Shown piece by piece: positions 4,395 through 34,125 of a stretch of 46,624 nt of DNA. Within the stretch, counting starts at the first letter, position 1, and every line of letters begins with the position of its first letter. Source of the DNA: Hyphomicrobiales bacterium (GTDB lineage Bacteria; Pseudomonadota; Alphaproteobacteria; Rhizobiales; Xanthobacteraceae); assembly GCA_016210825.1 (NCBI GenBank), contig JACQTM010000354.1, positions 1 to 46,624 of the forward strand, written 5' to 3'. A program made the translations under genes and the position numbers. The notes below the pieces were generated by a model. That model made no database searches. It was not told the DNA's origin and saw only the letters and a list, made by a program, of their open reading frames with translations.

Positions 4395-4405
4395 GGCGCG
4401 GCTCC

Positions 4406-5602: not shown

Positions 5603-5616
5603 TTGATTTATATCAA
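5603..5616. promoter_or_regulatory. Perfect FNR/FixK-type box TTGATttatATCAA in the had / korA divergent intergenic region
   Basis: Read directly: TTGAT 5603-5607, N4, ATCAA 5612-5616. The centre is 82 bp upstream of the korA ATG (5692) and 130 bp upstream of the had ATG (5479). Confidence 0.6.
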
Positions 5617-5691
5617 CTTGGATTCCCGCATTTTCAGCCAGACTTGCTGCTGTCGGGACATGCATCCGATCCGATAGCGGTGAGGCAAGTC

Positions 5692-7422: not shown

Positions 7423-7424
7423 CA

Positions 7425-8782: not shown

Positions 8783-8818
8783 CGGCGTTCGATAACGGCG
8801 CAGTTACTGCCGATACCG

Positions 8819-10239: not shown

Positions 10240-11850
10240 TTATCCTGCTTGCGACACCGTCCAGCCCGGTTTGACGGGTGGACCCGCGACACCTGCGCCG
10301 CGCCGCGGCGTGTGCGCCAGTGCAAAGCCCTGATTGTAGCCCGCGCGCGTGATGAGGATGAATTTCATCGCCCAACCGCCGGCAAAGGCCGACAATCCGG
10401 CAACGATAAAGAGTGGCGAACTGGCTGGCGGGAAGTAAAACGCGGCAATCGCCGCCAGCGCGGGGATCAGGAGCCCGAACGCGAAGAACCACGGGCGCAG
10501 ATAAATCAACGTCTCAATGGTGCGCGTCGGCGCTCCAGTCGTTATCAGCGCATTGAGGTAGGCTCGCCAAATTCCCGTTCTGGCGACGACCAGGATTAGA
10601 AGAGCGACCGCCGTGCCATGCGCCAATGGAGCGAGCGGCGCAAGACCCTGAGTCGCTGCGAGGAAAAGACCCGCGCCTTCCGCAAGCCCGGTTATGACGA
10701 TGAGGGGAACGATGAGCGGTGCGCGCCACGCCGGGATTCCCTTGGCTTCCTTCAGGATCATTGCCTGCGAGAACAGGAAGGGCAGGCTCAGCAGCATCGC
10801 GACAGCGAGTAGCACATTCGATTGGAACCACAACGCAATCAGTGCGGCTGGAAAGAATACGCCTACGATCCACGCCTCACGCGACATCCAGGAGCGTTGT
10901 GGTTGCCGCAAGACATAGATGAAGCGCAGCGGCCGGCCGATCTTGAACAACAACAGCAGCAGTCCAATCGCGATGATGCCGAGCGCCGCCAATGCAAGCA
11001 TGGCGGTCGGATAGCCGTCCAGCGCCGCGGCCGCGGCGCTGATGTAGAGGCCGCTGCCGGCCCCACCGCAGAGAAAATTCCCCGCCGCCTTCCAGTCCCA
11101 GTGTTGCTGATGCCAGGGTTCGACGCCGCGGGTGCGAACGCGCCCGGCGACGGGATCGGCTGCCGCTGCCGTGTCCGCCCCGCGCCCGGAATGCGCCGCA
11201 TGATCGGCCGCGTCATAGAGATAATAGAAGCCCGGCTCGGTCGCTACCTCCTCATGCATGCGGAAATTCTTATATTCCCGCAGCAACCGCGAGACGTTGC
11301 TGCCCGGGTCGTCGATATCCCCGAAATGCAGGGCGGTTGCGATGCAGGCGTTGACGCAAGCCGGCGTCGCGCGCGGGTCGATACCCGGCGTCACGCCGTT
11401 TTCGAGCCCGAAATCGATGCGGTCGGAGCAGAACGTGCATTTCTGCGCGACGCTGAGGCGGCGGGGGTCTTCGCGCTCGATCTCGTTCTGCATCGCGCTG
11501 TCGCCGTAGGCGAAATGTGGTGCATCGATTTTAAAGCGCGCCTGATAAGGGCAGGCCACGTCGCAATAGGCGCAACCGATGCAAATGTCGTAATCGATTG
11601 TGACGATGCCGTCATCGCGCTGGCGCGTCGCCGTGGTCGGACAGACATGCATGCACGGCGGATCGGCGCAATGCTGGCAGCCGACGGGAACGAAGGTGCG
11701 TTTCACCTGCGGAAAAGAACCGGCCTCGATGTCGAGAACCTTGCGCCACTGCACCGCGGGCGAGGTCGCGTTGGCGTGGCGGCAAGCGGCGGTGCAGGTC
11801 TGGCACCCGACGCAGCGTTCCAGATCGGCGACCATCGCCCAGCGGGTCAT
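10240..11850 (-). CDS. Fused four-cluster [4Fe-4S] ferredoxin subunit (DmsB/PsrB/PadC-like) and NrfD/DmsC/PadD-like polytopic membrane anchor
   Basis: 536 aa from ATG 11850; the track ORF runs to 11988. ATGA overlap with the large-subunit stop at 11847-11850. Four Cys groups are present: CVGCQTCTAAC, CQHCADPPCMHVCP, CIGCAYCDVACP, CTFC...CVNAC. An Ala/Gly/Asp-rich linker follows at about 11116-11214, then about 8 TM helices. Confidence 0.65.
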   Translation of the reverse strand: MTRWAMVADLERCVGCQTCTAACRHANATSPAVQWRKVLDIEAGSFPQVKRTFVPVGCQHCADPPCMHVCPTTATRQRDDGIVTIDYDICIGCAYCDVACPYQARFKIDAPHFAYGDSAMQNEIEREDPRRLSVAQKCTFCSDRIDFGLENGVTPGIDPRATPACVNACIATALHFGDIDDPGSNVSRLLREYKNFRMHEEVATEPGFYYLYDAADHAAHSGRGADTAAAADPVAGRVRTRGVEPWHQQHWDWKAAGNFLCGGAGSGLYISAAAAALDGYPTAMLALAALGIIAIGLLLLLFKIGRPLRFIYVLRQPQRSWMSREAWIVGVFFPAALIALWFQSNVLLAVAMLLSLPFLFSQAMILKEAKGIPAWRAPLIVPLIVITGLAEGAGLFLAATQGLAPLAPLAHGTAVALLILVVARTGIWRAYLNALITTGAPTRTIETLIYLRPWFFAFGLLIPALAAIAAFYFPPASSPLFIVAGLSAFAGGWAMKFILITRAGYNQGFALAHTPRRGAGVAGPPVKPGWTVSQAG

Positions 11851-14585
11851 GCCGCTACCTCCCGCCGCGCGATGCGAACCTTGACGAGATCGGCGCTCGA
11901 ACCGGTCGCGTCGGTAAGATCGAGCAGCATGGGCATGAGCGCGTTCATGCTGGGCGTATGAAAATCCTTTGCGAAGGGCGTGGCCCAATGGTCGAATTGA
12001 CCGATCATCAGCAGCGTGTCGGGACGTATGCCCTCGGACAATAAGACCTTGCCGCGCGTGCTGTTCAGGGGCGAGGCGACCTCAACAATATCGCCATCGC
12101 CGATGCCGAGTTTGGCCGCGGCGCTCTCGTTCATCACCACGCTGCCGTGTCCGATGACGTTATCGGCGACTTCCTTGATAAGCTGGATGCCGACATTACC
12201 GCCCCACGAATATTGCATGCTGCGCGCGGTGATCAGCCAGAACGGATAATCCGCGATGTTGACCTTGAAATGCTCGGCGAGCGCGCGTTCCCAGAGTTCG
12301 CCAAGGTCCCGCCAATGCGGCAGCGGTTCGTATTCCGAAAGCTGTTTGTCCCACCAATGGATGTCGTGTTCGTGCAGCCGCTGTTCGAGCTCCTTGCCGA
12401 TCCGGAATAACCGCTCCTGATACGGCTGCTCGAAACGAAGTCCGCTTTCGACCAGCTTGGGATAGAGATACCACTGCAATCGTGAGAATGGCTTCACGCG
12501 AAAGCCATGCTCGCGGAACCAGTCAAGTCCCTGGCTTTCCGCGCCGTCGGTAATCTCCGCACTCGCGGCGCGACAGGTCGCATCCCAGATCGCTTCGACG
12601 TCGTGGACTTTGGCCGGATCGAGAGAGAAATCGTAATTCTGACCGTTCAGCCGTACGCCATGCGCGCCACGGTTGATGGCGCCGTTATAGGCCTCCAGCA
12701 GTCCCGTCCGCCGCGCAAGATCGGTGGTGATGAATGTGAAATCCTTGGCCTCGCCCTGGGGCGGTACTGCCTGGTCGCGCAGCGCAAAGCCCTGGTAGTC
12801 CCAGAATTGCTCGACATACTTTGTGCCGCCGATGCGCAGAAGCTGCAATCCTTCAAGGTCAGTGCAGTCTGGCAGCAGAACATCGGCCATGTGATTGGTT
12901 TCGTCGCGGGTGAAGGCGAAGCACACCGTGAATGGAAACTTAGCCATTGCCTCGCCGACAGCCCTGGTGTCCCAGAACGAAATCGCCGGGTTGGTGCGAT
13001 AGACAAACCACACGTCCGGCGGATCGGCGTGGGGGATATGCTCGAAGTCCTCGTTCTGCATCATCCAGGCGAGATGTGTCGGCCCCAGCGCCTGGCTCCA
13101 GGCGGAATTTGCGACCAGCGGCACCAGCGTGCGGTGAATGCTCCGCGCCGGCGGCTGCGCGATCCATTGATCGCGACTGGTCGGATTCATCGGATAGTCC
13201 ATGAAGCCGTCCGGCCCGGGCTTGACGCTCGACCAGCGATTGTCCGCCGGCCGGTTGAGCCGAACCGTGGTGCCGAGCGTGCCGCCCGGGACTTCCAGCG
13301 CGCCGACGAGACAGGGAAGCAGCGTGCGCGCCCAGCAACATTCGTAGCCGCCCCAGCCGTTGTTCACGGTCTTGCCGAGCGCGATCGCGACCGGGCGGAA
13401 GGGAAGCGTGACGCCTTCGATATCGATCGTTTCACCGACGCGGGCGTGATCGAGATACTCGTTGGCAATTCGACGGATTGTCGGCGCGGAAACGTCACAA
13501 ATCTGCGCCGCCCATTCCGGCGTGTACTCCTTCACATGCGCCACGAGATGCGCGAAGGCGGGCATCGCCGTCACATCACGATGGATGGTCTCTTCGTTGT
13601 CGGGACCTGCCTCGATGCCGTCGACAGCGAAGTCTCCCTCGATTGCCGGGTCAATGCCGCTTGTATCGAACGGCACGGGGTGCCGCGCTTTGGTATTAAA
13701 AACCAGGGGCTTTCGCGTCGCCGGGTCGCGCAGGAAATAACCATGCGGACCGATGAGATAAGTTGCTGAAGTGCGCTCTTTGAGGAACGCAAGATCGAGC
13801 CGCGTGCGCGGCTGCTCATGCAACAGCACATGGATCATCGCAAACAGGAAAGCCGCATCGGTTTTCGGCTTGATCGGGATCCATTCCGCGGAACATGCGC
13901 CCGTAATGGACAAATGCGGCTCGATCTGCACGCGCTTCATGCCGCGTGCGCGCGCATCGGCATGGCGTTTCACCCCGCAGACGCCGCCGGAGGCTTCGAC
14001 ATTGGCGCCGAACGAAACGAGATATTCGCAGAGCGGCGTGTCGGGAGAGACGGTGAACGCGCGGTGCCATAATTCGCCGTAGAGATGCTCTGAGTGGTAG
14101 CACTTCACGCCCTGGCCCGAACCGAAGCTCATGTCCACCGGGCCCCAGGCGGCGAGGAAGGCCGGCAGCGTGCCCATATAGGCGGTCGGCGTACCACCGC
14201 CGCCAAAACTCGCGGCGACGCGCGGATAACCTTGCGCGTTGAGCAGACCGGCAGCGCGCGCGCCATTGAGTTTCTCGGCGACGAGCGCGAGCGCCTCGTC
14301 CCAGGAAATTTCAACAAAACCGGGATCCTGATCGCGGCCCTTTTTCGGATTGGTCCGCTTCATCGGATGCAGGATACGATTTGGGCTATAGGCCTTCTGG
14401 ATCAAGCCATAGGCCTTAACGCAGACACGGCCGCCGGCTGGATGAATCTGTGCGGCATCGAAGTTCGGATTTATCTCGGTCGCCGCGCCGTCCTGGATGC
14501 GGACCTTCAGCAGATCGGGCCCGGCCACGCATTGATAGCAATATGTCGAAATCGTACGGTCGCTATTGCTCTTGCGTGCGCTCAT
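11847..14585 (-). CDS. Molybdopterin (DMSO-reductase family) oxidoreductase large subunit without Tat signal; PadB-like (phenylacetyl-CoA:acceptor oxidoreductase candidate)
   Basis: 912 aa with a bis-MGD family layout. There is no twin-arginine leader (MSARKSNSDRTISTYCYQCVAGPD...). The N-terminal Cys motif is incomplete (C16-x2-C19, Pro at the third position, C55). It is flanked by a paaK homologue and a CoA thioesterase. Confidence 0.6.
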   Translation of the reverse strand: MSARKSNSDRTISTYCYQCVAGPDLLKVRIQDGAATEINPNFDAAQIHPAGGRVCVKAYGLIQKAYSPNRILHPMKRTNPKKGRDQDPGFVEISWDEALALVAEKLNGARAAGLLNAQGYPRVAASFGGGGTPTAYMGTLPAFLAAWGPVDMSFGSGQGVKCYHSEHLYGELWHRAFTVSPDTPLCEYLVSFGANVEASGGVCGVKRHADARARGMKRVQIEPHLSITGACSAEWIPIKPKTDAAFLFAMIHVLLHEQPRTRLDLAFLKERTSATYLIGPHGYFLRDPATRKPLVFNTKARHPVPFDTSGIDPAIEGDFAVDGIEAGPDNEETIHRDVTAMPAFAHLVAHVKEYTPEWAAQICDVSAPTIRRIANEYLDHARVGETIDIEGVTLPFRPVAIALGKTVNNGWGGYECCWARTLLPCLVGALEVPGGTLGTTVRLNRPADNRWSSVKPGPDGFMDYPMNPTSRDQWIAQPPARSIHRTLVPLVANSAWSQALGPTHLAWMMQNEDFEHIPHADPPDVWFVYRTNPAISFWDTRAVGEAMAKFPFTVCFAFTRDETNHMADVLLPDCTDLEGLQLLRIGGTKYVEQFWDYQGFALRDQAVPPQGEAKDFTFITTDLARRTGLLEAYNGAINRGAHGVRLNGQNYDFSLDPAKVHDVEAIWDATCRAASAEITDGAESQGLDWFREHGFRVKPFSRLQWYLYPKLVESGLRFEQPYQERLFRIGKELEQRLHEHDIHWWDKQLSEYEPLPHWRDLGELWERALAEHFKVNIADYPFWLITARSMQYSWGGNVGIQLIKEVADNVIGHGSVVMNESAAAKLGIGDGDIVEVASPLNSTRGKVLLSEGIRPDTLLMIGQFDHWATPFAKDFHTPSMNALMPMLLDLTDATGSSADLVKVRIARREVAA

Positions 14586-19760: not shown

Positions 19761-20990
19761 TTAGCGGTCTTGCGAATGCGGCGCTTCCCTGCGGGAAAGC
19801 CGCGAAAAAGCCTGCCAGCCTCGACCAACAGCGGAGCAGCTGCCGCCGGGATTGGCTTGGCACGTGTCATGGAATCTTGTCGCGATCATCGCGCTTACCT
19901 TTTTTCGCGCCGACGCAAAAGCAAGCGTTGTGGCAAAAAGAGCGAGCGCGACAATCGTCAGCGCGCCGCTGAAGGCGCGCGGTCCCGGCCATTCAAGGAT
20001 ATCGGAGGCAATGCGGACTGCAAGGGAGCCATGCAACAGGGCGAGAGGAAGATAGAGCGCGGGGCTGTAATGCAGGGTTAGTTTCAGCACTGCCGGCAAA
20101 ATAATGAGCGCGTGCCCGAACACCATCGAAAGAACAAAACCGATGGCGATTGTATGCACTGCGGCATCGTAGCCAAAAGCGGTTGTTTGCGGCTGGAACG
20201 CTAGCAGCAATAGGCCGCAAATGCCGAGCCAGACATAACCTGCCAGCATTGCTGCTGAGCAAAACCGAATCTGGCCAGGATGCATCACGGTGCGTCGTGC
20301 GGCATCGTAAACGAGCAGCCAGACCGAGCATGCGATCAGCCCAAGACCCAGCAAGGGCGCGGCATCGCCGTTCAGCTCACCGCGCACGGTGCCGGCGAAA
20401 ACAAGACCCACGGCGATCACGAATGCGACTTGCGCCGCCGGCGAGGGGGCGAACACACGGCTGAGTTCAAGGCGCTCGGCGGCGATGGTGAGAACGAGGA
20501 ACGACAGCCACCAGCCGGTCACAAGCGGTATCGTATTGCCGGCGAACCAGATCGCCGTGCCCACGCCCCATGACGCCGCGGCAATTGTCATCACGACGGT
20601 AATGAGCAGCGGCTGACGATTGACCACCACGATCGAAGTTAGCGTGAGAATGACGCTGGCCGCAATGAAGAGAAGGGGAGCCGTGGCGGCCGTCATCGGC
20701 GAGAGCAGGCCAAGCGCACCGGCAGCGGAAAACGCAGGCGCCATATAGATCCACCGCCTGCCAAGCGCCACCGCGCGTTCCAGGGAAATCAATGTGCCGA
20801 AAAAACCGGAAATCAATAGTGCACCGTGCATGTCCGTAAATTGCGGCTGGCCGCCCGGCATGACGATGCCGAGACGCCACAATCCGCTCCACAGACCCGC
20901 TATGAGCGCGGCGGCGGCAAACGCCATCGGCACCACACGGAGGCTGCGCTGCCCAGCGATCGCATGGCGTTCAGACATCGCCGTTGCCAT
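19761..20990 (-). CDS. Polytopic (about 12 TM) membrane protein of unknown family
   Basis: 409 aa, hydrophobic throughout. Recurrent His and Glu-Arg motifs lie in the helices (MHGALLISGFFGTLISLERA, LTIAAERLELSR, HTIAIGFVLSMVFGHALII). The C-terminal 45 aa are hydrophilic. It starts 4 nt after the DUF59 stop. Confidence 0.6.
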   Translation of the reverse strand: MATAMSERHAIAGQRSLRVVPMAFAAAALIAGLWSGLWRLGIVMPGGQPQFTDMHGALLISGFFGTLISLERAVALGRRWIYMAPAFSAAGALGLLSPMTAATAPLLFIAASVILTLTSIVVVNRQPLLITVVMTIAAASWGVGTAIWFAGNTIPLVTGWWLSFLVLTIAAERLELSRVFAPSPAAQVAFVIAVGLVFAGTVRGELNGDAAPLLGLGLIACSVWLLVYDAARRTVMHPGQIRFCSAAMLAGYVWLGICGLLLLAFQPQTTAFGYDAAVHTIAIGFVLSMVFGHALIILPAVLKLTLHYSPALYLPLALLHGSLAVRIASDILEWPGPRAFSGALTIVALALFATTLAFASARKKVSAMIATRFHDTCQANPGGSCSAVGRGWQAFSRLSRREAPHSQDR

Positions 20991-21543: not shown

Positions 21544-21732
21544 GAAACTCACGATCAGGGATAGGGCGGACATCAGGATGGACGAATATTTGCAGGTACC
21601 AAGAGAGATCCATGCCTGGAGGACAGGGCATGCCACAATCTATAAGCTGTCTTTATTCTAACGATTGCATCACGATACGACAGGCCGCCAGGGGTGCGGC
21701 GTGAGTTGAAAATCACGGAAAGTCGTAAGGCG

Positions 21733-22458
21733 ATGACGTCGGCACTTACATCCGCTGATCTTGATATCGTGAAACGGATCGCCGTTTTTCGCGGACTGAA
21801 CCCGCTGATGCTCGATCGGCTTATCGCGCCGGCTGTCGCCCATACACTGGCGGTCGGAGACGTGGTCTTTCGTCAGGGCGACCCGGCAATGGCGTTCTTC
21901 ATTCTGGTCGATGGCTGGGTCAAGCTGTACCGCGTCACCATATCCGGCGATGAAGCCGTGATCCACGTCTTCGCCAAGGGCGACAGCTTCGCTGAAGCGG
22001 TGGCGTTCACTGGACATGCTTATCCGGCGACCGCGGAAGTCGTCAGCGAAGCCCGGGTGGTTCGCATCCCCGCCGAGCACGTTGTCAACTGTATACGCCG
22101 GATGCCGGAGATCGCACTGGCGATGATCGCCTCGACGTCGCAGCATCTGCATCACCTGGTGCAGCAGGTTGAGCAACTCAAGGCGCAGACCGGGGTGCAG
22201 CGGGTCGCCGAATTTCTGGTATCGCTGTGCGAGGCCGAGCGCGGCAAATGCAACATCGCGCTGCCCTACGACAAGGTGCTGATCGCGGGGCGTCTGGGGA
22301 TCAAGCCGGAATCGCTATCGCGGGCGTTTGCCAAGCTGCGCTCGGTCGGGGTCGAGGTGCGCGCGGCGCATGTCGTCATCGGCGACATCGCACGGCTGCG
22401 CGACCTTGCGATGGGGGACCGTGGCGCGACACGCGAATCCTTACGCGAGGCACGCTGA
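21733..22458 (+). CDS. CRP/FNR-family transcription factor without the FNR N-terminal Cys cluster (FixK/NnrR/AadR-like)
   Basis: 241 aa from ATG 21733; an alternative GTG lies at 21694. It has a cNMP-binding-like beta-roll (FRGL...GDVVFRQGD...FFILVDGWVKLY) and a C-terminal HTH with the E--SR recognition motif (PESLSRAF). There is no Cys in the first 130 aa. Confidence 0.85.
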   Translation: MTSALTSADLDIVKRIAVFRGLNPLMLDRLIAPAVAHTLAVGDVVFRQGDPAMAFFILVDGWVKLYRVTISGDEAVIHVFAKGDSFAEAVAFTGHAYPATAEVVSEARVVRIPAEHVVNCIRRMPEIALAMIASTSQHLHHLVQQVEQLKAQTGVQRVAEFLVSLCEAERGKCNIALPYDKVLIAGRLGIKPESLSRAFAKLRSVGVEVRAAHVVIGDIARLRDLAMGDRGATRESLREAR

Positions 22459-24562: not shown

Positions 24563-25225
24563 TCAACCGGCCATACTGAAAAGCTTACCAAAGAATCCGG
24601 TTCCATTTTGGACAGCCGTCACATGGCGGCGAAGCCAAGCATCAAATCCCAAACTCCGGCCCGCGGAATGCAGCGCAAACAGAAACATCAGCATCGCCAA
24701 AAAGATGTAGGACCACGACCATTCGGCGGGCTCACCGGGAAGATAAATACCGAGCCACAGGTGCAGAACGAAGAACACGGCAAGCACCCCGGCGAGGCGC
24801 ACTCCGAGCCCTAGGATCATCGAGACGGCAAAGGTGAGTTCGGCAAGAAGAACTATTGGGCCGAATAGTTTAATATTGGGAAGTAGAAATCCGGTCACGA
24901 GATCGCGGTGAAATTCGAACGCCGCGCGCGTGCCCATTTGAATGGTCCAGTAAGTTAATCCATCGGACGCCGGCGGCGGCAGCTTCCACAACATTCCCTC
25001 GAACCACATGCAGCCGATTAAAACACGGATGATCCAGGTTGCGAGATGTGCCCCGGTCCGCTGGCTTTCGTCTTCCTGCCAATTGCGCCACGCGATGAAG
25101 ATGCTCGCAACGAGCAGCGCCCAAAAAAGCGCGACCAGCAGATATCGCCAGCCGCCAAGCTGCATGAAGTCGCCGGTCGCGCCGGTGAGGAATTGCCAGA
25201 TATCAGTGAACGGATTCTTCAGCAT
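24563..25225 (-). CDS. DoxX/DoxD-like integral membrane protein
   Basis: 220 aa from ATG 25225, with 4-5 TM helices. DoxX-like segment IIRVLIGCMWFEGMLWKL and ELTFAVSMILGLGVRLAGVLAV. It overlaps the 3' end of the SelD-fusion gene by 23 nt. Confidence 0.55.
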   Translation of the reverse strand: MLKNPFTDIWQFLTGATGDFMQLGGWRYLLVALFWALLVASIFIAWRNWQEDESQRTGAHLATWIIRVLIGCMWFEGMLWKLPPPASDGLTYWTIQMGTRAAFEFHRDLVTGFLLPNIKLFGPIVLLAELTFAVSMILGLGVRLAGVLAVFFVLHLWLGIYLPGEPAEWSWSYIFLAMLMFLFALHSAGRSLGFDAWLRRHVTAVQNGTGFFGKLFSMAG

Positions 25226-27563
25226 GAGACTTCTCCGGCAATGGTTTCTTGCGTCGCTCGCCCTTGCGCGGCCGCTCCAGTACTTCGGCCACCAGCGTTC
25301 CATCTAGATCGATTGCGACCGGTTCGATTGCGGTATTTCGTGGAGACACGAAACCGACAACGGCCGCATTGGGATAACCCCCGGCGCGCAGTGCAACAAC
25401 GCATCGTTCCGCTTCCGCCAACGGAACTGACGCCAGCAATCCGCCGGCCGTCTGCGGGTCGAACAGAAGCGAATAAAGCGGATGCTTGCCCGCCGTGTCG
25501 AGATTCTTGATGGCACGGCGAAGCCGTACATTCTGCGGTTGCAGCGATGAGAAGATTCCGCGCGCAACACTTTCGTGCGCGCCATCGAGAAGGGGGACTC
25601 GGTCGATTGCGAGGGTGACGTCGACGTTCGAAGCACGCACCATTTCGATCAGATGACCGAGAAGTCCAAACCCCGTGATGTCGGTTGCGGCGTGGACGCC
25701 ATGTGAACGCAGGATTTCGGCTGCATTTTTGTTCGAATGGATCATGTGGGCAATCGCGGCCATCACCCAGCGTGCCTTGGCCTTTCCGTGCATATCCGCT
25801 GCGAGCAGTGTTCCTGTCCCAATGGGCTTAGTAATAATGAGTGCGTCGCCGGGCTTGAGCCCGCCCTTGCGCAAGGCGGCGGATCGCGAAACCAATCCAT
25901 TAACGGCGAAGCCGAGCGATAACTCGGCTCCCTCGCTGGTGTGACCGCCGACAAGCGCACAACCGGCCTCGCGCAATATTTCGTTCGCTCCATTCATCAT
26001 CGCCGAGAGATCCGCCTCGACCTTGGCCTCGAGGCCATAAGGCACGGTGGCGATGGCAAGCGCCGATTGTGGTTCGCCACCCATGGCAAAAATGTCGCCA
26101 AGCGAATGGTTCGCGGCGATTTTTCCGAACAGATAGGGATCGTCGACGATGGCACGAAAATAATCGACGGTCTGCAGCGAGAGCCGATCGCCGCCTGTAT
26201 CGACAATGGCGGCATCGTCGGGGGCGTCGAGGCCGACGATCACGTCAGTACGTGGCATAGGCTCAATCGCACCGAGTGCGCGCGACAACACGGTTGCGCC
26301 CACCTTGGCGCCGCAGCCGCCGCAACGCATGGCGATGGCGGAAATCTCCTTGAGCGCCTGCCGATCGGCCAACGGTGATGCCGTTGCTTCCTCTGCCGCC
26401 ATCTCCGGCAAGTCATTGAACTTCCGCATGAAGCGGCGATCGATCCAATCTTTCCAGCGCCAGACCCAGCGGCCGGAAAAAACCAGGCCGTTGCGCGTGC
26501 CGACCGCATAGGGTTCACCGGTCGAAACGAGATAAAGCGCGTCGCGCTGCGGGCGAAAAGTTCGAAGCCGACGGCCCGTCAATGTACGACGGATATTGCC
26601 GGCGAGCACCGGACCGGCGCGCACGGCATAGACGCCGGATTTCGGCAAGGCACGCGGCCCGAATGAAACGGTGTCGCCCGCGGCGAAAATATCATCATGA
26701 CCGACAACACGGAGTGTGTCGTCGACCTTGAGAAATCCACGATCGTCGAGCGGTAAGCCTGTCGCTGCGAGCCAGCGCGCCGGTGCTGCTTGTGTTGTCC
26801 ATAGAATCTCATCGGCTTCGATCGTCGCCCCATTTTCAAGTACGAGCCGGCCGCTTTCTACCCGAACCACCGGCGTGCCAGCCATGACCGCAATGCCTCG
26901 TTCGGCGAGCGTGGCGTGAAAGCGTTTCCGGAATGCCGCCGGAAATGTCGGCAATATGTCGGCTTCTTCGGTGATGAGACAGAAAGACAAACCCGTCGTT
27001 GAGAGGCCGGAACTCGCCAATTCGTGGCGCAGCCGGCGTTCGACCGAGAGCAGCAGTTCGACACCACCGGCGCCGGCTCCCACGAGGGCAATTTGCGCCC
27101 GCCCCTGGCGCGCAAGGACGCGGGCCATGAGCGCCTCAAAGCGGTGAAGAAAACCGTCGATCGGCTTGACGGGGATGGCATGCTCGCTCGCTCCGGGCAC
27201 GGATGCAGTGTTCGGCGTCGAGCCAATATTGAATGACAGTAAATCATATGGCACCGGCGGACGATCGCGGCAGATCAAGCTGCGATTGGCCAAATCGATA
27301 CCGGAAACCTCATCCTGATATAACCTTGCACCGGTGAAACGCGCCAGCGGACCGGTATCGATATGGGCATCGTCGACGCCGTAGAGCCCGGCAATCAATC
27401 CGGGCAACATTCCGGAATAGGGCGTGTGCACCTCACGGCTGATCAAGGTGAAACGCACGCCCGGAATCGGCTCCATGCCGAACCTGCGCAGCACAGCGAC
27501 GTGTGCGTGGCCGGCGCCGACCAGCACCACGTCCTTGATAACCGGCTGAACCGTGCTCTTCAT
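25203..27563 (-). CDS. selD: Fusion of an FAD/NAD(P) pyridine-nucleotide-disulfide oxidoreductase domain (NDH-2/SQR-like) with selenide,water dikinase (SelD)
   Basis: 786 aa. The N-terminus has two Rossmann motifs (VVLVGAGHAHV, IALVGAGAGGVE) and FAAGD. From about residue 405 it is SelD/AIR-synthase-like: MRCGGCGAKVG (Cys414 and Lys420 at 26304-26324, codon TGC and not TGA), DDAAIV, HSLGDIFAMGG, GGHTSEG, TDITGFGLLGHL. ATGA overlap with the phnE-like stop at 27560-27563. Confidence 0.85.
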   Translation of the reverse strand: MKSTVQPVIKDVVLVGAGHAHVAVLRRFGMEPIPGVRFTLISREVHTPYSGMLPGLIAGLYGVDDAHIDTGPLARFTGARLYQDEVSGIDLANRSLICRDRPPVPYDLLSFNIGSTPNTASVPGASEHAIPVKPIDGFLHRFEALMARVLARQGRAQIALVGAGAGGVELLLSVERRLRHELASSGLSTTGLSFCLITEEADILPTFPAAFRKRFHATLAERGIAVMAGTPVVRVESGRLVLENGATIEADEILWTTQAAPARWLAATGLPLDDRGFLKVDDTLRVVGHDDIFAAGDTVSFGPRALPKSGVYAVRAGPVLAGNIRRTLTGRRLRTFRPQRDALYLVSTGEPYAVGTRNGLVFSGRWVWRWKDWIDRRFMRKFNDLPEMAAEEATASPLADRQALKEISAIAMRCGGCGAKVGATVLSRALGAIEPMPRTDVIVGLDAPDDAAIVDTGGDRLSLQTVDYFRAIVDDPYLFGKIAANHSLGDIFAMGGEPQSALAIATVPYGLEAKVEADLSAMMNGANEILREAGCALVGGHTSEGAELSLGFAVNGLVSRSAALRKGGLKPGDALIITKPIGTGTLLAADMHGKAKARWVMAAIAHMIHSNKNAAEILRSHGVHAATDITGFGLLGHLIEMVRASNVDVTLAIDRVPLLDGAHESVARGIFSSLQPQNVRLRRAIKNLDTAGKHPLYSLLFDPQTAGGLLASVPLAEAERCVVALRAGGYPNAAVVGFVSPRNTAIEPVAIDLDGTLVAEVLERPRKGERRKKPLPEKSHAEESVH

Positions 27564-29125
27564 GCGGCCTTCTCCGCAGCAAGTGTGCCGCCCAGCCGCG
27601 TTTCGCTCGGCGCCTCGGACAGCCTAGTCGGCATCGTCTCGATTCGAAGTCGCCGCCTCAGACCGCGAGAGAATGCATCGACCGCCATCGATAGCAGCGC
27701 AGTCGCGACAATTAACATCACCGCAACGTCGAGTTTGATCTCGGAGATGGCCGCGTCAACGTAGTAACCAAGCGTCACAACGCCAAGGATACCGAATATC
27801 GCGCTTTCGCGCAGGATGATCTCCCATCGATAGAGAACATAGGCGAGAAACTGACCATAGAGTCGCGGCACCGTCTCGTAGCAATAGAGATTGATCCCTC
27901 GGGGCGCGTCGGGCCGATACTCAAGCGCATCGGCATGGCGACCCATGAGGTAGCCGACGATCGCCCCATTATGCAGTGATAGCGCGATGATGGCCGGGAG
28001 CATCGACGGCCCAAGCAATTGTAGCAGGACGTAGACCAGCATGTATTCCGGCGTTGAGCGCACCACAACCAGCGCCACGCGACCCAATGGCTGACCGATG
28101 CGGCCGGCAAATCGGCGGCAAATGAATGGGAATGCCAACAATGCGATCGCCGCCATCGCCACGAGGGCAATCTGCGAAAGAACGAGCGTTTGAATCACGC
28201 CCGGGACGATCTGCTTTGCAAAAATCGGCCAGAACCATGTGCCGAGATTGGTCATAGTCGCCGCTGCAAAAAGGTCGGCGTCGCGTAGCGGCGTGGGGAC
28301 GATATCGTGAGTGACGAAGCGAATGAGGTTTGTCAGTGTCGACGCGTTGCCCACCGATTCAGGCAGAATGAAAATGCTTGCAACGATGAGTAACGGTACT
28401 GTCGCCGGACGCGCCCACAGCCGTCGCGTCCCTATCAGCACGTAGAAGCAAAAGAGCAGCGCGGCGGCTTCCGCGAAATGCCCCTGCTTGAAAAAGGAAT
28501 CGAGATGAAAACCGATCGTCGGCAAGCCGACAAAGCCGAGGACGAGAGTGGAACGCATGCCGCATTCGAGACGGTAAAGGGTGTACGTCCAGAATTGCGG
28601 TGCCAATTCCGGGATGCGCACAAAGGCAAAGCGCGCGAGAAGCGACGTGCCCGCTGGTAGAACGCGCTCGGCGGAAAGATCCGCCTCCTCGATGATTTCA
28701 GAAAATACCTTGGCGAAAATTCCGGAATAGGGGATGGCAACCGCGAGTATCCCGGTGGTGGATGAAATTCCGGCAATCTGGATAAGTAACAACGCCCAGA
28801 ATAATTCATGCACGGAACGCAGGAATGCGGCGAGCACGCGGATCGCACGTAAGCGCGCGAAAACAAGCGCCATGAGAAACCCGGCCGTTGCGCCGAGGGC
28901 TACGCCAAGGACGGCAAAGGCGACGGTCCATACGACGCTCATTACTTCAATCGAAAAGAAATCCGGCTGCAACAGACCGGCGACCAATCGGCGCATTTCG
29001 GCCCACGGGTTAAGCGCACTCACCGTCAAGTCCGCGACGGCGACTGCTGCAATCGCGGTCAAAAGGAACAGGTTGCTCGTGGACAGATATCCGAGCTTTG
29101 GAAGTCTCAGGCCATATACGGTCAT
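27560..29125 (-). CDS. Double-length PhnE-type ABC permease (two fused permease modules)
   Basis: 521 aa from ATG 29125 (MTVYGLRLPKL...); the track start at 29197 overlaps the ATPase gene. It contains two PhnE-like halves, each with an EAA-type loop region. Confidence 0.75.
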   Translation of the reverse strand: MTVYGLRLPKLGYLSTSNLFLLTAIAAVAVADLTVSALNPWAEMRRLVAGLLQPDFFSIEVMSVVWTVAFAVLGVALGATAGFLMALVFARLRAIRVLAAFLRSVHELFWALLLIQIAGISSTTGILAVAIPYSGIFAKVFSEIIEEADLSAERVLPAGTSLLARFAFVRIPELAPQFWTYTLYRLECGMRSTLVLGFVGLPTIGFHLDSFFKQGHFAEAAALLFCFYVLIGTRRLWARPATVPLLIVASIFILPESVGNASTLTNLIRFVTHDIVPTPLRDADLFAAATMTNLGTWFWPIFAKQIVPGVIQTLVLSQIALVAMAAIALLAFPFICRRFAGRIGQPLGRVALVVVRSTPEYMLVYVLLQLLGPSMLPAIIALSLHNGAIVGYLMGRHADALEYRPDAPRGINLYCYETVPRLYGQFLAYVLYRWEIILRESAIFGILGVVTLGYYVDAAISEIKLDVAVMLIVATALLSMAVDAFSRGLRRRLRIETMPTRLSEAPSETRLGGTLAAEKAA

Positions 29126-29132
29126 CGGCCGA

Positions 29133-29804
29133 CTAACCCCCGTAGTACGGTACGAGGTCGCCGGCGCTGAGCTCGCGCGCGGGATGATCGAGTACAATGC
29201 GTCCGGCTTCGATCACGACAATTCGCCCGACATGAGAAAGCGCAAGCGGGATGTCGTGCATGGCGAGAATCGTCGTTTCATGACGGGCGCACAATGTTCC
29301 GAGGATTTCCCCACCCTGGATGCGATCGAGCGAAGAGACGGGCTCATCGCCAATAACAATTGGCCGGCCGTTATAGAGCGCGCGCGCAACCGACGTGCGC
29401 TGCTGTTGACCACCGGACAGGGCACCGGCCGCGGCGAATAGCTTGTCGCTTAGACCAACGAGATCGAGCACGCCTTCAATCTCGGCAACGTCGCGTCGCG
29501 CAGGCCACGCCAGATTGCGCAGATTGTACCAAGTCGGATGGCGATCCAGGCGGCCCATATAGACATTGTGAAAGACCGACAGCGTCTTCACCAATGCCGC
29601 CGCCTGTGGAATGAGTGCGACGCGTTCGGTCAGCCGTTCGTGAATGAGGCTGAGCAACGTCGACTTCCCGGCGCCAGAACGGCCCATGATGGCGACGCGC
29701 TCGCCGACATGGATCGTGAGATCGATATCATGAAGAACGGCGTGGCCGGCATAGCCGGCCGACGCCTTGGTGAGTTGAAGTAAGACCTGCACGCTCGCCT
29801 TCAA
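29133..29804 (-). CDS. PhnC-type ABC transporter ATP-binding protein
   Basis: 223 aa. GRSGAGKSTLL, LSGGQQQRTSVARAL, IVIGDEPVSSLD. The start is uncertain: TTG 29804 (TTGA overlap with the binding-protein stop) or GTG 29792. Confidence 0.85.
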   Translation of the reverse strand: MKASVQVLLQLTKASAGYAGHAVLHDIDLTIHVGERVAIMGRSGAGKSTLLSLIHERLTERVALIPQAAALVKTLSVFHNVYMGRLDRHPTWYNLRNLAWPARRDVAEIEGVLDLVGLSDKLFAAAGALSGGQQQRTSVARALYNGRPIVIGDEPVSSLDRIQGGEILGTLCARHETTILAMHDIPLALSHVGRIVVIEAGRIVLDHPARELSAGDLVPYYGG

Positions 29805-30670
29805 TTTAGTAGATTCGTGACCTTCGCGACTTCTTCAATCGGCTTGTAGTCGTCGTTCTTGGCCGGGATGAATTTCGTACGTGCGAATTGGTCAAGAATG
29901 GCTTTATCGTCGATTGCAAGCAGCGCGGCTCTGAGTTTTTCTTTGAAGCCAGCGCCGTAGACCTTGTCGACGTCGCCCCGCACCGTCCATTGATAATCCG
30001 GATAGGACGGGGTCTCCCAAATCACAACGACCTGCGAGGCGTCGACCTTGCCGGCTTTATTGTCAAGTTCCCAGACTGAGTAGTCGAGCACGCCGACCTC
30101 GTATGCGCCAGACTGCACGAGCTGAATTGTACGGCTGTGATCGCCTGAAAAACCGACGCGGGAGAACACCTCTTCGGGCGATTTACCGCCGAATTGCTGA
30201 CGCAAATAAAATTCCGGCATCAGCCGCCCCGAGGTCGAGGCGCGCGAACCGAAGGTAAATGACTTGCCGGCGATGGCTTTGGGAAACTCCTTCGATGGTT
30301 TGAGGCCAGTTTTGACATTGGCGATCAAGAAGCTCTTGAAGGCAACGTCTTCAACACCCTGCGCGATAGCCACGGACTCCGGCACCTGCCGTCGCGCCTG
30401 CACACCGGTAAAGCCACCGAACCAGGCCAGTTGGACCTGATTGTTGGTGAAGGCGGTCACCGCGGCCGGATATGTCTTCACCGGGAGATATTTCACCGAT
30501 ACGCCGAGCTTGCCTTCCAGGTACGTGGCAACACGCGTGAAACGCTCGACAAGGCGAGTCTCGTCTTGGTCGGGGATGGCGGTAAAGACAAATACGGGCT
30601 TGTCCTGGGCAAACGCGGAACCGCCCCACAACGGGCCAAGCAGCGCCAATACGCAAAGAATTCGCTTCAT
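29801..30670 (-). CDS. PhnD-family periplasmic oxyanion-binding protein (possible selenium-oxyanion binder)
   Basis: 289 aa from ATG 30670, with GGAGGAA 6 nt upstream. Signal peptide MKRILCVLALLGPLWGGSAFA. PhnD-like FTAIPDQD...YLPVKTYPAAVTAF...LAWFGG...GSRASTSGRLMPEFYL. The track ORF to 30928 is a false extension. Confidence 0.8.
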   Translation of the reverse strand: MKRILCVLALLGPLWGGSAFAQDKPVFVFTAIPDQDETRLVERFTRVATYLEGKLGVSVKYLPVKTYPAAVTAFTNNQVQLAWFGGFTGVQARRQVPESVAIAQGVEDVAFKSFLIANVKTGLKPSKEFPKAIAGKSFTFGSRASTSGRLMPEFYLRQQFGGKSPEEVFSRVGFSGDHSRTIQLVQSGAYEVGVLDYSVWELDNKAGKVDASQVVVIWETPSYPDYQWTVRGDVDKVYGAGFKEKLRAALLAIDDKAILDQFARTKFIPAKNDDYKPIEEVAKVTNLLN

Positions 30671-30800
30671 CGAACTTTCCTCCATCTCTTGGGCAGGATA
30701 CCGATAAAGGTCCCACACAGAATTGGCGGTCAAATAACTAGCAGACCTCATCACCTGTTTGTGAATGTTGGCACTACTTAAGTTGTGGGTTTGGGCGAAT

Positions 30801-31634
30801 TCAGCTCGGTTTTTGAGCAATGGCCGTATGGGCGACCGCGGAGAGCGCAATCTCACCACAGCCGTAATCGCGCTCAATCGCGGTGACAAAGGCATCGAGT
30901 ATAGCGGCGCGGTCGGCACCAAGCGCACCGACCCACGCGGTCATTCCCGGCGCGAAGGCAATACGGTCGGCAATCCATTGCGCCGAGGGCAGCCTCCATT
31001 TCTCCTGCAATACGACGATGTCATCGATCGTAAGCCCCGCCTGCACGAAAAGGTTGCGGAATGTTGGCTCGTCGCGAAATCGCAACTGCGCCGGCATGGA
31101 AGCCGGGGGCGGTTGCGGACCGCGCACCGCCGCGATGGCGGCCATGAGCCGTGAAGCAAGCTCGTAGCGTTCGATCTGCGTCCATGTCACCACTGCCGCG
31201 CGGCCGCCGGGCTTCAAGACGCGGGCAATCTCGCGCATCCCAAGTTCCGCGTCCGGAAACAGAATAACGCCGAAGACCGAAACCGCCGCATCGAAACATG
31301 CGTCGGACAAGGTGAGCGCCATGCCATCCATCACTTCGGCGCGAATACGGTTTGGGGGCTGTAGGCTATTTGCGCGTTGCCGAATCCGCGCGATCATAGC
31401 GTGCGAGGCATCGATGGCGAGCACATCGGCGCCGTTCCTTGCGGCCATCAAGGCAACCCCGCCGCTGCCGGCGCCAATATCAATTAACCGCGCGCCTGCT
31501 TTAAGGTCGAGTTTTTCCAACGCGCAGCGGCCAAACGCATTGGTAAGCGGCTCAAACACGGCCTCATACACGGCAACGTGATCGTTCCAGCGGTTCGGTT
31601 GCTGGTCGGGTTGAGGTTCGGCTGATAATTTCAT
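30801..31634 (-). CDS. Class I SAM-dependent methyltransferase
   Basis: 277 aa from ATG 31634. SAM motif I LIDIGAGSGGVAL, then DASHAMI, and motif III VLKPGGRAAVVTW. It has a 120-aa C-terminal domain of unknown function. Confidence 0.8.
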   Translation of the reverse strand: MKLSAEPQPDQQPNRWNDHVAVYEAVFEPLTNAFGRCALEKLDLKAGARLIDIGAGSGGVALMAARNGADVLAIDASHAMIARIRQRANSLQPPNRIRAEVMDGMALTLSDACFDAAVSVFGVILFPDAELGMREIARVLKPGGRAAVVTWTQIERYELASRLMAAIAAVRGPQPPPASMPAQLRFRDEPTFRNLFVQAGLTIDDIVVLQEKWRLPSAQWIADRIAFAPGMTAWVGALGADRAAILDAFVTAIERDYGCGEIALSAVAHTAIAQKPS

Positions 31635-31693
31635 CGGATCCAACAATATATGAACTTCGCCAGCGTTTCAGTCAGCCGAGATATGCCGCAAAA

Positions 31694-32743
31694 ATGACCG
31701 TGACCGAGTCACATTCAAGCGAACGTTCCGCCGAAACCGAGCGGACATTTGCGCTCGGGCTCGGATTGACCAACGAGTGCAACCTTGCGTGTTCGTTCTG
31801 CTACCGCGATCCGACGCGTGTCGATCGCCTTTCACTCGAGCAGATCCGAGCCGTGATGCAGACCCTTCCGGTACGCTCGGTCAATCTCGGGACCGGTGAA
31901 AACGGCATGCATCCGGAGTTTTCACGGCTGCTCGACTATCTGCGCCATGAACCGATCAAATTGACGATCACCTCCAATGGCTATTCGATCGAGGTTCTCG
32001 AAGATGCCCAGGTCAGGGCATTCAAAGACGTGGAATTCTCCCTCGACTATCCCAACGAAGCCGAGCAGGACACGCAGCGCGGTGCTGGAAATTGGCGCCT
32101 CGTTCACGAACAGGCCGCACGATGCCGCTCGCTTGGTATTCCTGTCACCTTTATCGCAGTCATGATGCGCTCGAATTACGACCGGCTCGCGGATATTGCC
32201 GAGGTGGCGAAGACATACGATGCTCCTTTGCGGATCAATGTCTATCAGTCGGTACGCTCCGATACATTTGCGTTGACGTATGATGAGTATTGGCGCGGCT
32301 TTGAGGCACTGTTTGCTCGCACGGACGTGATCGCGATTGGCGAGCCGTTGGTACGGGCAATGGCTGGCTTGCCGCCGCGGCGCGGCGGCTGCGGGGTAGC
32401 AACGGTGCGCGTAACGCCGCGCGCAACCGTACAACCATGCGTTTATTGGCCGGGCGGCGGAGCGCCGCTCGACTTGTTACTCAATCAAGGGGCCAACATT
32501 ACCGGCACCGATTCCTTCACCGCTGTGCGTTCTGTGCCGAAAGCGTGTTCGAGCTGTCATTATCTCAAAACATGCGGCGGCGGCTGCGCGGGCCGGCGGC
32601 GGTTGATCGATGCCCTCGATAGTCCCGATCCGTATTGCCCGATTATTCGCGGTAAGGCTCGGACGCTGCAAATTCGTATGGCCGAGAGCCGCGAACTTCC
32701 AAAGCTTGAAAGCGCGTGTACGACGATCGTCACTGCGCGTTAA
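31694..32743 (+). CDS. Radical SAM enzyme with a complete C-terminal SPASM domain
   Basis: 349 aa. CNLACSFC (CxxxCxxC) near the N-terminus. A seven-Cys SPASM pattern is present: GGCGV...QPC...CSSCHYLKTCGGGC...YCP. It is divergent from the methyltransferase across a 59-bp gap. Confidence 0.85.
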   Translation: MTVTESHSSERSAETERTFALGLGLTNECNLACSFCYRDPTRVDRLSLEQIRAVMQTLPVRSVNLGTGENGMHPEFSRLLDYLRHEPIKLTITSNGYSIEVLEDAQVRAFKDVEFSLDYPNEAEQDTQRGAGNWRLVHEQAARCRSLGIPVTFIAVMMRSNYDRLADIAEVAKTYDAPLRINVYQSVRSDTFALTYDEYWRGFEALFARTDVIAIGEPLVRAMAGLPPRRGGCGVATVRVTPRATVQPCVYWPGGGAPLDLLLNQGANITGTDSFTAVRSVPKACSSCHYLKTCGGGCAGRRRLIDALDSPDPYCPIIRGKARTLQIRMAESRELPKLESACTTIVTAR

Positions 32744-33105: not shown

Positions 33106-34125
33106 ATGCTGCTCCTTTTCGAAGGTGAGCACGGACCGAGGAACACTCTGAAGTTCATCGAGGAAAAGCTCGGCATTGGCTTGTGGAGTTGGGATATACG
33201 TTCGAACAAGATGCATTGGTCGCGGGGGGTTTATCATCTCCTGGGGCATGAGCCGGGCAGCGTTAAACCTTCCATCGAATTAATCAGGGGGATGGTTCAT
33301 CCGAGCGACCGCCTGGCGGCCGCGGAACTATCCCGTCTATTGCACGAAGGTCTTCCGATCGATCGTGAGTTTCGCATCATTCGTATGGACGGCCGAATCC
33401 GATGGCTTCGCAATCACGGCGAGGTCGTTATGGATCAGGCTGGTCGGCCGCAAAGAGCGATTGGTGTCATGTCCGACATCACCCGACGGCATGAGGCGCA
33501 GACGGCGCTCCGCGCAAGCGAGGAACGCTACCGGGTTCTTGCCGCCGCAACATCCGCGATTGTCTGGAAAGCGCTTGCGGACGGAAACGTCGCCGATATT
33601 CCGGAATGGCGCGAAGTCACCGGTCAATCGGTTGACGAGATCAAGGGAACCGGATGGCTCGATGCCATCCACGGGGACGATCGTAGCGCCGTATCGAAGG
33701 CATGGCGGAATGCACTGGAAAGCGCCTCGGCTTTCAACAAGGAATTTCGCGTTCGCATCTACGACGGCGGCTATCGTTGTTTCAGCTGCCACGCCGTCCC
33801 GATTTTCAATTCCGATGGCTCGGTTCGCGAATGGGTTGGTGTTTTGACCGATCTATCCAATCGCCCATCGGACAAGTCCGTCAATGGTGAAGCGATCACC
33901 GGCGCCCAGGTGCGTGGAGCACGCGCCATCTTGAATTGGTCGGTCAAGGATGTCGCCGACGCCGCGCAGGTATCGGTGTCGACAGTCCGCCGCATCGAGG
34001 AGCACGACGGGCCCGCGACGACGCGTGCGGTAGGAATTGCGGCAATTAAGCAAGCGCTGGAATCTGGGGGCGTTGAATTTATTCAAATGTTGTCGGGCCG
34101 GCCGGGCGTGCGCCCGCGCGGCTGA
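33106..34125 (+). CDS. PAS-PAS sensor with C-terminal XRE-type helix-turn-helix (one-component regulator)
   Basis: 339 aa with two PAS folds: WSWDIRSNKMHWS...HPSDR...EFRIIRMDGRIRWL...GVMSDIT, and AIVWKALADG...IHGDDR...EFRVRIYDGGYRCF...GVLTDLS. These are followed by LNWSVKDVADAAQVSVSTVRRIEEHDG. Confidence 0.75.
   Translation: MLLLFEGEHGPRNTLKFIEEKLGIGLWSWDIRSNKMHWSRGVYHLLGHEPGSVKPSIELIRGMVHPSDRLAAAELSRLLHEGLPIDREFRIIRMDGRIRWLRNHGEVVMDQAGRPQRAIGVMSDITRRHEAQTALRASEERYRVLAAATSAIVWKALADGNVADIPEWREVTGQSVDEIKGTGWLDAIHGDDRSAVSKAWRNALESASAFNKEFRVRIYDGGYRCFSCHAVPIFNSDGSVREWVGVLTDLSNRPSDKSVNGEAITGAQVRGARAILNWSVKDVADAAQVSVSTVRRIEEHDGPATTRAVGIAAIKQALESGGVEFIQMLSGRPGVRPRG

Follow-up and report, generated by a model that had tools for sequence, protein, structure and literature searches.

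A SelD fusion and PhnD1-type importer nested within a methyltransferase/radical SAM/DoxX gene unit: a candidate selenium locus in a Xanthobacteraceae contig

Contig JACQTM010000354.1 of assembly GCA_016210825.1, from a Hyphomicrobiales bacterium of the family Xanthobacteraceae, carries on its minus strand a row of six genes in which a periplasmic binding protein, the ATPase and permease of an ATP-binding cassette (ABC) importer and a fusion of a flavin adenine dinucleotide (FAD) oxidoreductase with the selenophosphate synthetase SelD are flanked by genes for a methyltransferase and a DoxX-like membrane protein. The window analysed is the whole contig (46,624 nucleotides, 46.6 kb), whose closest relatives are Xanthobacteraceae/Hyphomicrobiales metagenome-assembled genomes with at most 81% identity. 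All six open reading frames (ORFs), spanning 24563-31634, were confirmed, and a radical S-adenosylmethionine (SAM) gene diverges from them, giving the following layout.

30801-31634, minus strand: class I SAM-dependent methyltransferase (MT), 277 amino acids (aa), heading the minus-strand row; the ORF reaches 31646 with a TTG start
30671-30800, minus strand: spacer of 130 nucleotides (nt) between the MT gene and the binding-protein gene, holding a TCAC-N6-GTGA palindrome
29801-30670, minus strand: periplasmic substrate-binding protein (SBP) of TIGR04553/PhnD1 type, with a signal peptide
29133-29804, minus strand: PhnC-like ABC ATPase (ABC_tran, 79 bits)
27560-29125, minus strand: duplicated PhnE-like permease, 521 aa, with multiple hydrophobic segments in both halves
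25203-27563, minus strand: FAD oxidoreductase::SelD fusion, 786 aa
26394-27563, minus strand: N-terminal NDH-2/FSP1-like FAD oxidoreductase domain of the fusion, residues ~1-390
25329-26330, minus strand: SelD (selenophosphate synthetase) domain of the fusion, residues ~412-745 (AIRS and AIRS_C)
26304-26324, minus strand: SelD active-site loop CGGCGAK (CxxC and Lys) in the translated sequence
24563-25225, minus strand: DoxX/DoxD-like membrane protein, 220 aa, with ~4-5 hydrophobic segments
31635-31693, no strand assigned: divergent intergenic region of 59 bp between the MT and radical SAM genes, with the presumed promoters
31694-32743, plus strand: radical SAM/SPASM protein (rSAM), 349 aa, divergent from the operon

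Direct reading of the sequence confirmed the gene overlaps listed in an initial annotation of this DNA, which had described six same-strand genes as a single run. The stop codon of the SBP gene overlaps the start of the ATPase gene (TTGA, 29801-29804), 8 nt lie between the ATPase stop and the permease start, the permease stop overlaps the start of the fusion (ATGA, 27560-27563) and the 3' end of the fusion gene overlaps the DoxX gene by 23 nt. The TTGA, the ATGA and the 23-nt overlap are the kind of junction from which translational coupling is predicted. The SBP start was placed at 30670, though the listed ORF extends to 30928, because the Shine-Dalgarno sequence GGAGGAAAG precedes this position and the signal peptide MKRILCVLALLGPLWGGSAFA, followed by QD, results from it. 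Tight coupling is confined to the genes from SBP through DoxX because the 130-nt spacer parts them from the MT gene; this portion of the run therefore stands as initially annotated, and the MT is set off from it.

The fusion contains the Pfam domains Pyr_redox_2, AIRS and AIRS_C, and exceeds the cutoffs of both TIGR03169, for pyridine nucleotide-disulfide oxidoreductases N-terminal to SelD (454.1 against 310), and the SelD equivalog TIGR00476, for selenide, water dikinase (307 bits against 125). It falls below the cutoff of TIGR04369, which describes oxidoreductase/SelD-related fusions that are not SelD (475.6 < 700). Both cysteines of the CGGCGAK loop (C414 and C417) are invariant among 59 homologues. 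A CxxC motif was found in all NADH-dehydrogenase::SelD fusions by Zhang et al. 2008 (PMC2398784), and Ndh-SelD fusions with this motif are considered probable selenophosphate synthetases (PMC2398784; PMC4561486). Judged by its sequence, the protein is a genuine SelD, in agreement with the initial annotation, and very probably has SelD activity. The N-terminal domain, an NDH-2/FSP1-like flavoprotein on the same grounds, has YjlD, the NDH-2 enzymes of C. thermarum and S. aureus and FSP1 as its nearest relatives in the PDB. It contains one conserved cysteine, C98, kept in 97% of homologues, and ends in the Trp-rich segment WVWRWKDWIDRRF. In meeting both domain models and carrying CxxC the window protein is equal to the fusions of Zhang et al. 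and of TIGR03169 ("Nterm_to_SelD"), and differs solely in its setting, nested in a unit of MT, DoxX and rSAM genes.

With 363.6 bits, the SBP exceeds the cutoff of NCBIfam TIGR04553 ("putative selenate ABC transporter SBP"), which is set at 250; this is the putative selenate transporter model to which the initial annotation had referred. It also matches the Pfam family Phosphonate-bd (202.6 bits) and passes the superfamily model TIGR01098 (168.3 > 112). The importer shares this SBP superfamily and the ABC architecture with the PtxABC and HtxBCD phosphite/hypophosphite importers and with PhnCDE phosphonate importers, but its components fall short of the equivalogs for PhnD (TIGR03431; 124.3 < 261.1 bits), PhnC (TIGR02315; 142.6 < 266) and PhnE (TIGR01097; 172.5 bits in two stretches, cutoff 216.7). 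The match between the SBP and E. coli PhnD (3P7I) is weak (E 2e-6), and identity to PtxB is 27-28%; PtxB proteins carry Gln at position 203, where TIGR04553/PhnD1 SBPs, including that of the window, have Asp203.

The nearest PDB entry for the SBP is PhnD1 of Synechococcus MITS9220 (7S6G; E 1.4e-64, 45% identity), followed by PhnD1 of Prochlorococcus MIT9301 (5LQ5; 42% identity), and both crystallised sequences themselves pass TIGR04553 (329.1 and 298.6, respectively, against 250). Seven ligand contacts (Y44, S124, T125, S126, H156, D203 and Y204 in 7S6G numbering) are shared without change by the window SBP and by every aligned selenium-linked SBP from related loci (cited here as L001 and so on), save for the Y44 column in L020, where the ORF call is misaligned. 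Second-shell changes relative to PhnD1 are present in the window SBP (S123 to A and N174 to D), and the alignment revealed no first-shell residue that tells selenium-linked SBPs from cyanobacterial PhnD1. PhnD1 falls within the diversity of the family, because the window SBP is nearer to the cyanobacterial proteins (45%) than to a sen-linked SBP from Burkholderiales (39%). The picocyanobacterial PhnD1C1E1 operon (7S6G, 5LQ5/5LQ8) has the same order of SBP, ATPase and double permease, and is flanked by aminotransferase and GDSL lipase genes rather than by SelD. In Bosea vaviloviae SD260 the orthologue of the window SBP is encoded at L014 6909-7778 (NZ_LGSZ01000008.1). The same genome encodes another, more remote PhnD-like SBP with its ATPase (28% identity; L014 1472-2341), 5 kb from the selenium cassette, and this SBP has Asn in place of Asp at ligand position 203.

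Synteny was assessed by scanning genome contigs for the fusion, which returned 80 loci (54-78% identity) from the Alpha-, Beta- and Gammaproteobacteria and the Binatia; the fusion-centred set comprises 82 loci (these 80 with L001 and L002, one duplicate removed). L001 is part of a 518-kb contig and L022 of a closed chromosome. A transporter is located near the fusion in 37 of the 82, in representatives of the Alpha-, Beta- and Gammaproteobacteria, so that the adjacency of selD and transporter genes postulated at the outset is conserved. SenA/SenB-like genes are near the fusion in 43 loci, transporter and sen genes together in 23, a radical SAM gene in 10 and a DoxX gene in 12; a further class (23/82) has no transporter, sen or rSAM gene nearby. 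For example, the neighbours in L002 pass the models for the selenoneine biosynthesis proteins SenA (498.8 > 420) and SenB (350.6 > 300). The four-gene cassette of SBP, ATPase, permease and Ndh::SelD fusion is thus a recurrent module that is most often joined to selenoneine biosynthesis. In sen clusters, which are defined by SenA (NF041186), SenB (TIGR04348) and the SelD homologue SenC, a cassette with 55-82% identity to that of the window lies directly 3' of senB (L002, L006, L008, L022 and L087-L103). The window, by contrast, lacks senA and senB; MT and divergent radical SAM/SPASM genes adjoin its cassette instead, and DoxX follows the fusion. Kayrouz et al. 2022 (bioRxiv 10.1101/2022.04.13.486033) had already remarked that many sen clusters have a "putative selenate transporter" in their vicinity, and the recurrent synteny of cassette and sen genes is strong contextual evidence in favour of a selenium role. 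Selenium islands of Xanthobacteraceae type conserve a 245-aa double cupin-like protein whose gene separates rSAM from senA, as in L124 (946-1683) and seven further loci with both sen and rSAM genes.

The genes that surround the cassette in the window are themselves found together in other genomes. The MT matches Pfam Methyltransf_11/25 (68 bits), its best NCBIfam matches (UbiE/MenG-like) being all well under cutoff. The rSAM matches Radical_SAM (62.7 bits) and the SPASM model TIGR04085 (28.7 > 27) and passes no equivalog; it contains CxxxCxxC at residues 29-36, a full SPASM set of seven cysteines and an invariant C-terminal KLESACTTIV. The membrane protein is a marginal match to DoxD (PF04173; 25.9 against 22.7 bits) and matches no NCBIfam model, including the DoxD equivalog NF041179, and no doxA partner is present. 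Sequence searches of the PDB returned no relatives for DoxX, none that are informative for rSAM and generic class I methyltransferases for MT. Homologues of rSAM with 67-85% identity occur in 90 loci. The protein is highly conserved in alignment A1 (mean identity 79%), and a metagenome scan with A1 provided a set of 80 further loci. MT orthologues (45-73% identity) adjoin the radical SAM gene in 31 of these 80, and DoxX orthologues are near it in 23.

Four contexts of the rSAM gene can be distinguished. The first is that of the window. In the second, a DoxX-(MT) row divergent from rSAM lies directly beside complete sen-plus-cassette clusters, and because of this position the MT/rSAM/DoxX unit is regarded as an add-on rather than a replacement for senAB. 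In the third, rSAM, MT, SBP, ATPase and permease genes form a row with a stand-alone SelD gene alongside. The fourth is a clade with no SelD in reach, where rSAM is flanked by a different methyltransferase, by a distant DoxX-like protein encoded after it and by a family 2 glycosyltransferase (GT2), with a true TIGR04282 member (151.5 > 134), a GT87-like membrane glycosyltransferase and a secreted protein as further neighbours. The MT gene is followed directly by DoxX, with rSAM divergent and no cassette, in L085, L086, L104 and L113, and the order MT-[cassette]-DoxX is found in the window and in L001, L014 (Bosea vaviloviae SD260), L015, L017, L019, L020, L092 and L101. Given this recurrence in eight other loci, the gene arrangement of the window is not due to chance. 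Stand-alone SelD genes adjoin the rSAM gene in L118, L122, L125, L126, L142, L148 and L151, and constitute an independent second architecture of the rSAM-SelD association. These proteins (e.g. L148 766-1863) share ~35% identity with the SelD portion of the fusion, and several of their genes are convergent with the rSAM-MT-SBP-ATPase-permease row. Six of the seven multi-member rSAM sequence clades are linked to selenium through fused or stand-alone SelD, and SelD is present in 8 of the 15 rSAM loci that have at least 5 kb on either side.

Other genes also recur close to the unit. A second radical SAM/SPASM gene, whose best match is the tungsten-cofactor maturase family (below cutoff), is found near the selenium-linked unit in L001 (1-2957), L014 (12976-16090) and L129 (8361-14500), and the same stretches encode a dolichyl-phosphate-hexose-transferase-like GT2 and a GT87/MptA-like membrane glycosyltransferase. 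None of these is encoded in the window; in the SelD-less clade the TIGR04282 member joins them. A gene with weak matches to uridine/purine phosphorylases adjoins the radical SAM/DoxX genes in L014 (4035-4829), L015 (4022-4816), L020 (3998-4813) and L143 (5816-6799), and such a nucleoside phosphorylase could salvage 5'-deoxyadenosine, a by-product of radical SAM enzymes.

We favour, on balance, the reading of this locus as a composite of two modules, with a selenium acquisition and activation cassette (SBP, ATPase, double permease and NDH-2-like::SelD fusion) placed inside an MT/DoxX/rSAM unit that is its likely partner or a consumer of selenophosphate. The importer would take a small protonatable oxyanion into the cell, the flavoprotein domain would reduce it with NAD(P)H, with C98 and the CxxC loop as possible carriers of selenium, and the SelD domain would phosphorylate the resulting selenide to selenophosphate. 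The second module would consist of MT followed by DoxX, together with the divergent radical SAM/SPASM gene, the cassette having been inserted here exactly between MT and DoxX. The users of the selenophosphate might be this unit, pathways whose genes lie elsewhere, or the two together; in most relatives the cassette would feed selenoneine synthesis by senA/senB instead. The initial annotation had seen no consumer, which is too strong a statement, since the cassette of relatives is usually located in sen clusters and that of the window lies within a SelD-linked unit. The MT/rSAM/DoxX unit is the best local candidate for the use of selenophosphate. We consider the chances even that the unit is functionally linked to selenium, a link to which its genomic associations point in most lineages, and rather doubt that it consumes selenophosphate directly.

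The nature of the imported anion has to be considered separately. The SBP ligand is left between candidates because the PhnD1 phosphite/phosphate binders share its family and every contact residue, and the label "selenate" is unsupported. We infer from the conserved Asp, a hydrogen-bond acceptor, that a protonatable anion would be favoured and fully ionised selenate disfavoured. Selenium is probably the physiological cargo of the importer and, if so, selenite is a better candidate than selenate with comparable assurance. Selenite/biselenite, which resembles phosphite in being a three-oxygen anion, is the best guess that would reconcile the biochemistry of PhnD1 with the genomic context.

Several observations weigh against the composite reading. 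The ligands measured for characterised members of the SBP family are phosphite, phosphate and methylphosphonate (PMC10284923), and orthologues are universal in picocyanobacteria (97/97 strains), where they are not adjacent to selD. The 130-nt separation sets the MT gene apart from the cassette, the MT has no conserved Cys, and neither family models nor a sequence search of the PDB assigned the rSAM to a characterised family. One large rSAM clade (n=25) is without SelD within reach and has GT2, TIGR04282 and GT87 neighbours. Finally, the searches for sel and sen markers cover this contig, so that selA, selU and senAB may be located elsewhere in the genome. In the window, selA, selB, selU, yqeB/C, senA and senB were not found (Pfam on 37 ORFs picked as likely genes, with tblastn for SenA/SenB) and the tRNA search was also empty, as the initial annotation had reported for the sel and yqe genes; no Rfam family matched the window, and ptxD, C-P lyase and phnYZ were not detected among the Pfam matches.

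An alternative that we regard as possible but unlikely is that the cassette provides a general supply of selenium for pathways encoded elsewhere, such as selenocysteine, 2-selenouridine or selenoneine synthesis, and that MT, rSAM and DoxX are unrelated or merely co-regulated. It is consistent with the 23 loci in which the fusion occurs without transporter, sen or rSAM neighbours, with the selenocysteine machinery found by earlier surveys in genomes with extended SelD (PMC4561486), with the rSAM clade that has no SelD nearby and with the gap between the MT and SBP genes. This gap, however, is just ~30-60 nt in some relatives, at least nine loci of several orders have the cassette placed precisely within the MT-DoxX operon, and rSAM is tied independently to two SelD architectures, fused and stand-alone.

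It is less probable still that the importer transports phosphite or phosphate and that its linkage to SelD is indirect. In the study of Shah et al. 2023, PhnD1 proteins bound phosphite at 0.05-4 µM, phosphate at 7-180 µM and also methylphosphonate (PMC10284923). The two crystallised PhnD1 proteins exceed the TIGR04553 cutoff, every first-shell residue is identical in the window SBP, and no selD is present within 10 kb of the orthologue in Synechococcus CC9311. In formal terms the comparison of ligand pockets went against the selenium ligand of the initial annotation, in that the SBP lies in the PhnD1 phosphite/phosphate family with all contact residues intact. It is nevertheless hard to see why a transporter of phosphorus oxyanions should lie among SelD/sen genes, and in translational coupling with them, in 37 of the 82 loci across three proteobacterial classes. 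The behaviour of picocyanobacterial PhnD1 was itself described as paradoxical by its authors, as phosphite is of no use to the strains and phosphate starvation does not induce the operon; selenium compounds are mentioned nowhere in that study (PMC10284923). A search with the consensus CTGTCAT-N4-CTGTCAT and up to 3 mismatches, a consensus of E. coli type that may not be that of the host, revealed no Pho box close to the operon, and to this extent the result agrees with the selenium assignment made initially. The sole Pho-box-like match in the window, at 19010, lies away from the locus and does not reach chance expectation.

It is very unlikely that DoxX supplies the FAD domain with electrons drawn from quinol within a self-contained line of import, reduction and activation, with the MT as an accessory and the destination of the product open, as the initial annotation proposed: although the closest structural relatives of this domain are NAD(P)H:quinone oxidoreductases, the DoxX and fusion genes share a 23-nt overlap and DoxX accompanies the fusion without rSAM in L002/L021, L006 and L018, 70 of the 82 fusion loci have no DoxX, and DoxX is far more regular beside rSAM (23/80 loci, with a DoxX-like gene in 18 more), including loci in which SelD has no FAD domain (L126, L148) or in which no SelD is nearby. 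L138 and L143 also have the DoxX-rSAM pairing, but there the SelD gene is beyond the recovered contig. Of the import-reduction-activation scheme as a whole, then, the SelD assignment, the binding-protein family and the gene adjacency stood, while the ligand is left between candidates, the lack of a consumer was put too strongly and the role of DoxX is weakened.

Other affiliations for the unit were considered and rejected. The rSAM is not an obvious maturase of ribosomally synthesised and post-translationally modified peptides of the MftC, PqqE or SkfB type, as its score against MftC is 77.4 < 265 and it has no recognition element for such peptides, the CxxxCxxC motif starting at residue 29 and leaving no space for one; no conserved small ORF that might encode a precursor adjoins the gene, and downstream there is no nucleotide conservation. 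Methylation or adenosylation of the ArsM/ArsS type was likewise rejected and kept as a loose analogy. The arsenosugar cassette (ArsM, ArsS, TIGR04282, TIGR04283) resembles the rSAM neighbourhood of those relatives in which a methyltransferase, a GT2 and the true TIGR04282 member flank rSAM, and both may be viewed as gene sets for metalloid organification. The rSAM, in contrast to ArsS, has a SPASM domain and scores below TIGR04167 (28.7 < 300), the GT2 of relatives is under the TIGR04283 cutoff (50-57 < 182), ArsM has conserved cysteines that the MT lacks, and GT2, TIGR04282 and GT87 are all missing from the window.

The idea of combined selenium import and activation already exists at the level of databases and literature (PMC2398784; bioRxiv 10.1101/2022.04.13.486033). 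New here are three points: crystallised phosphite-binding PhnD1 proteins are connected with the "selenate SBP" family, the cassette is viewed as a module, and a recurrent unit of MT, radical SAM and DoxX genes is put forward as a candidate for a selenium-dependent pathway. The database label and the biochemical literature on PhnD1 are disconnected: our literature search returned no relevant publication on TIGR04553, on DUF2064 with radical SAM or on selenite together with phnD, and the characterised PhnD1 of Synechococcus sp. CC9311 (L084; CP000435.1 1515675-1536589) is labelled "putative selenate ABC transporter substrate-binding protein" in GenBank/RefSeq. According to reviews of 2022 and 2026, a specific transporter with high affinity for selenium has yet to be identified in any prokaryote (PMC9312934, PMC13188914), and the TIGR04553/PhnD1 family is the leading candidate for this function, for which structures and purified proteins exist as PhnD1. 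Binding of selenite or selenate by PhnD1 would bear both on the database label and on the purpose of its puzzling affinity for phosphite. If these proteins are selenite importers, this could also be relevant to the binding, by picocyanobacterial PhnD1, of an anion for which the cells have no use, though most of these strains have no SelD. The wider proposition, that importers of TIGR04553/PhnD1 type are the dedicated high-affinity selenite importers of bacteria and that MT/rSAM-SPASM/DoxX constitutes an unrecognised selenophosphate-dependent pathway, is speculative and, taken as a whole, improbable. Such a pathway could lead, independently of oxygen, to a small molecule or cofactor that contains selenium, and could be distinct from selenocysteine, 2-selenouridine, the Mo-hydroxylase cofactor, selenoneine and ovoselenol. 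As the unit, tied to two SelD architectures, occurs in the cultured Bosea vaviloviae SD260, a further selenium-utilisation trait can be tested in this strain.

The intergenic regions of the locus show few conserved features. In the 59-bp region between MT and rSAM (31635-31693) there is neither nucleotide conservation with relatives nor a consensus promoter. A regulatory RNA or conserved leader in the spacer between MT and SBP was rejected, there being no Rfam match, 41% column identity and a fold z of -0.08. The TCAC-N6-GTGA palindrome of this spacer (30751-30764) is the only copy in the window, where 0.49 would be expected, and recurs in the equivalent spacers of L014, L015 and L088 only, which is not significant alone; from its sequence it may be an operator. 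A PAS-PAS-HTH protein with no match in related loci is encoded directly 3' of the radical SAM gene (33106-34125), and a Crp/Fnr-type regulator is located ~2 kb past DoxX (21694-22458).

The remaining genes of the contig encode acyl-CoA and anaerobic-type catabolism, a molybdopterin oxidoreductase, a branched-chain amino-acid ABC transporter and a chemotaxis operon. For two long ORFs, at 19761-20990 (409 aa) and 45254-46564 (436 aa), Pfam gave no match at E <= 1e-5. A 582-aa 4Fe-4S ferredoxin-like protein is followed by a 912-aa molybdopterin oxidoreductase at 10240-14585; the frame of the latter is unbroken and it is therefore not a selenocysteine-containing formate dehydrogenase. The region 3-10159 encodes two HGD-D subunits (2-hydroxyglutaryl-CoA dehydratase/benzoyl-CoA reductase type), two enoyl-CoA hydratases, a Zn-alcohol dehydrogenase, a 2-oxoacid:ferredoxin oxidoreductase pair, a rubrerythrin and a phenylacetate-CoA-ligase-like AMP ligase. 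This gene content resembles an island for the anaerobic catabolism of acyl-CoA or aromatic compounds, and thereby suggests a facultatively anaerobic host.

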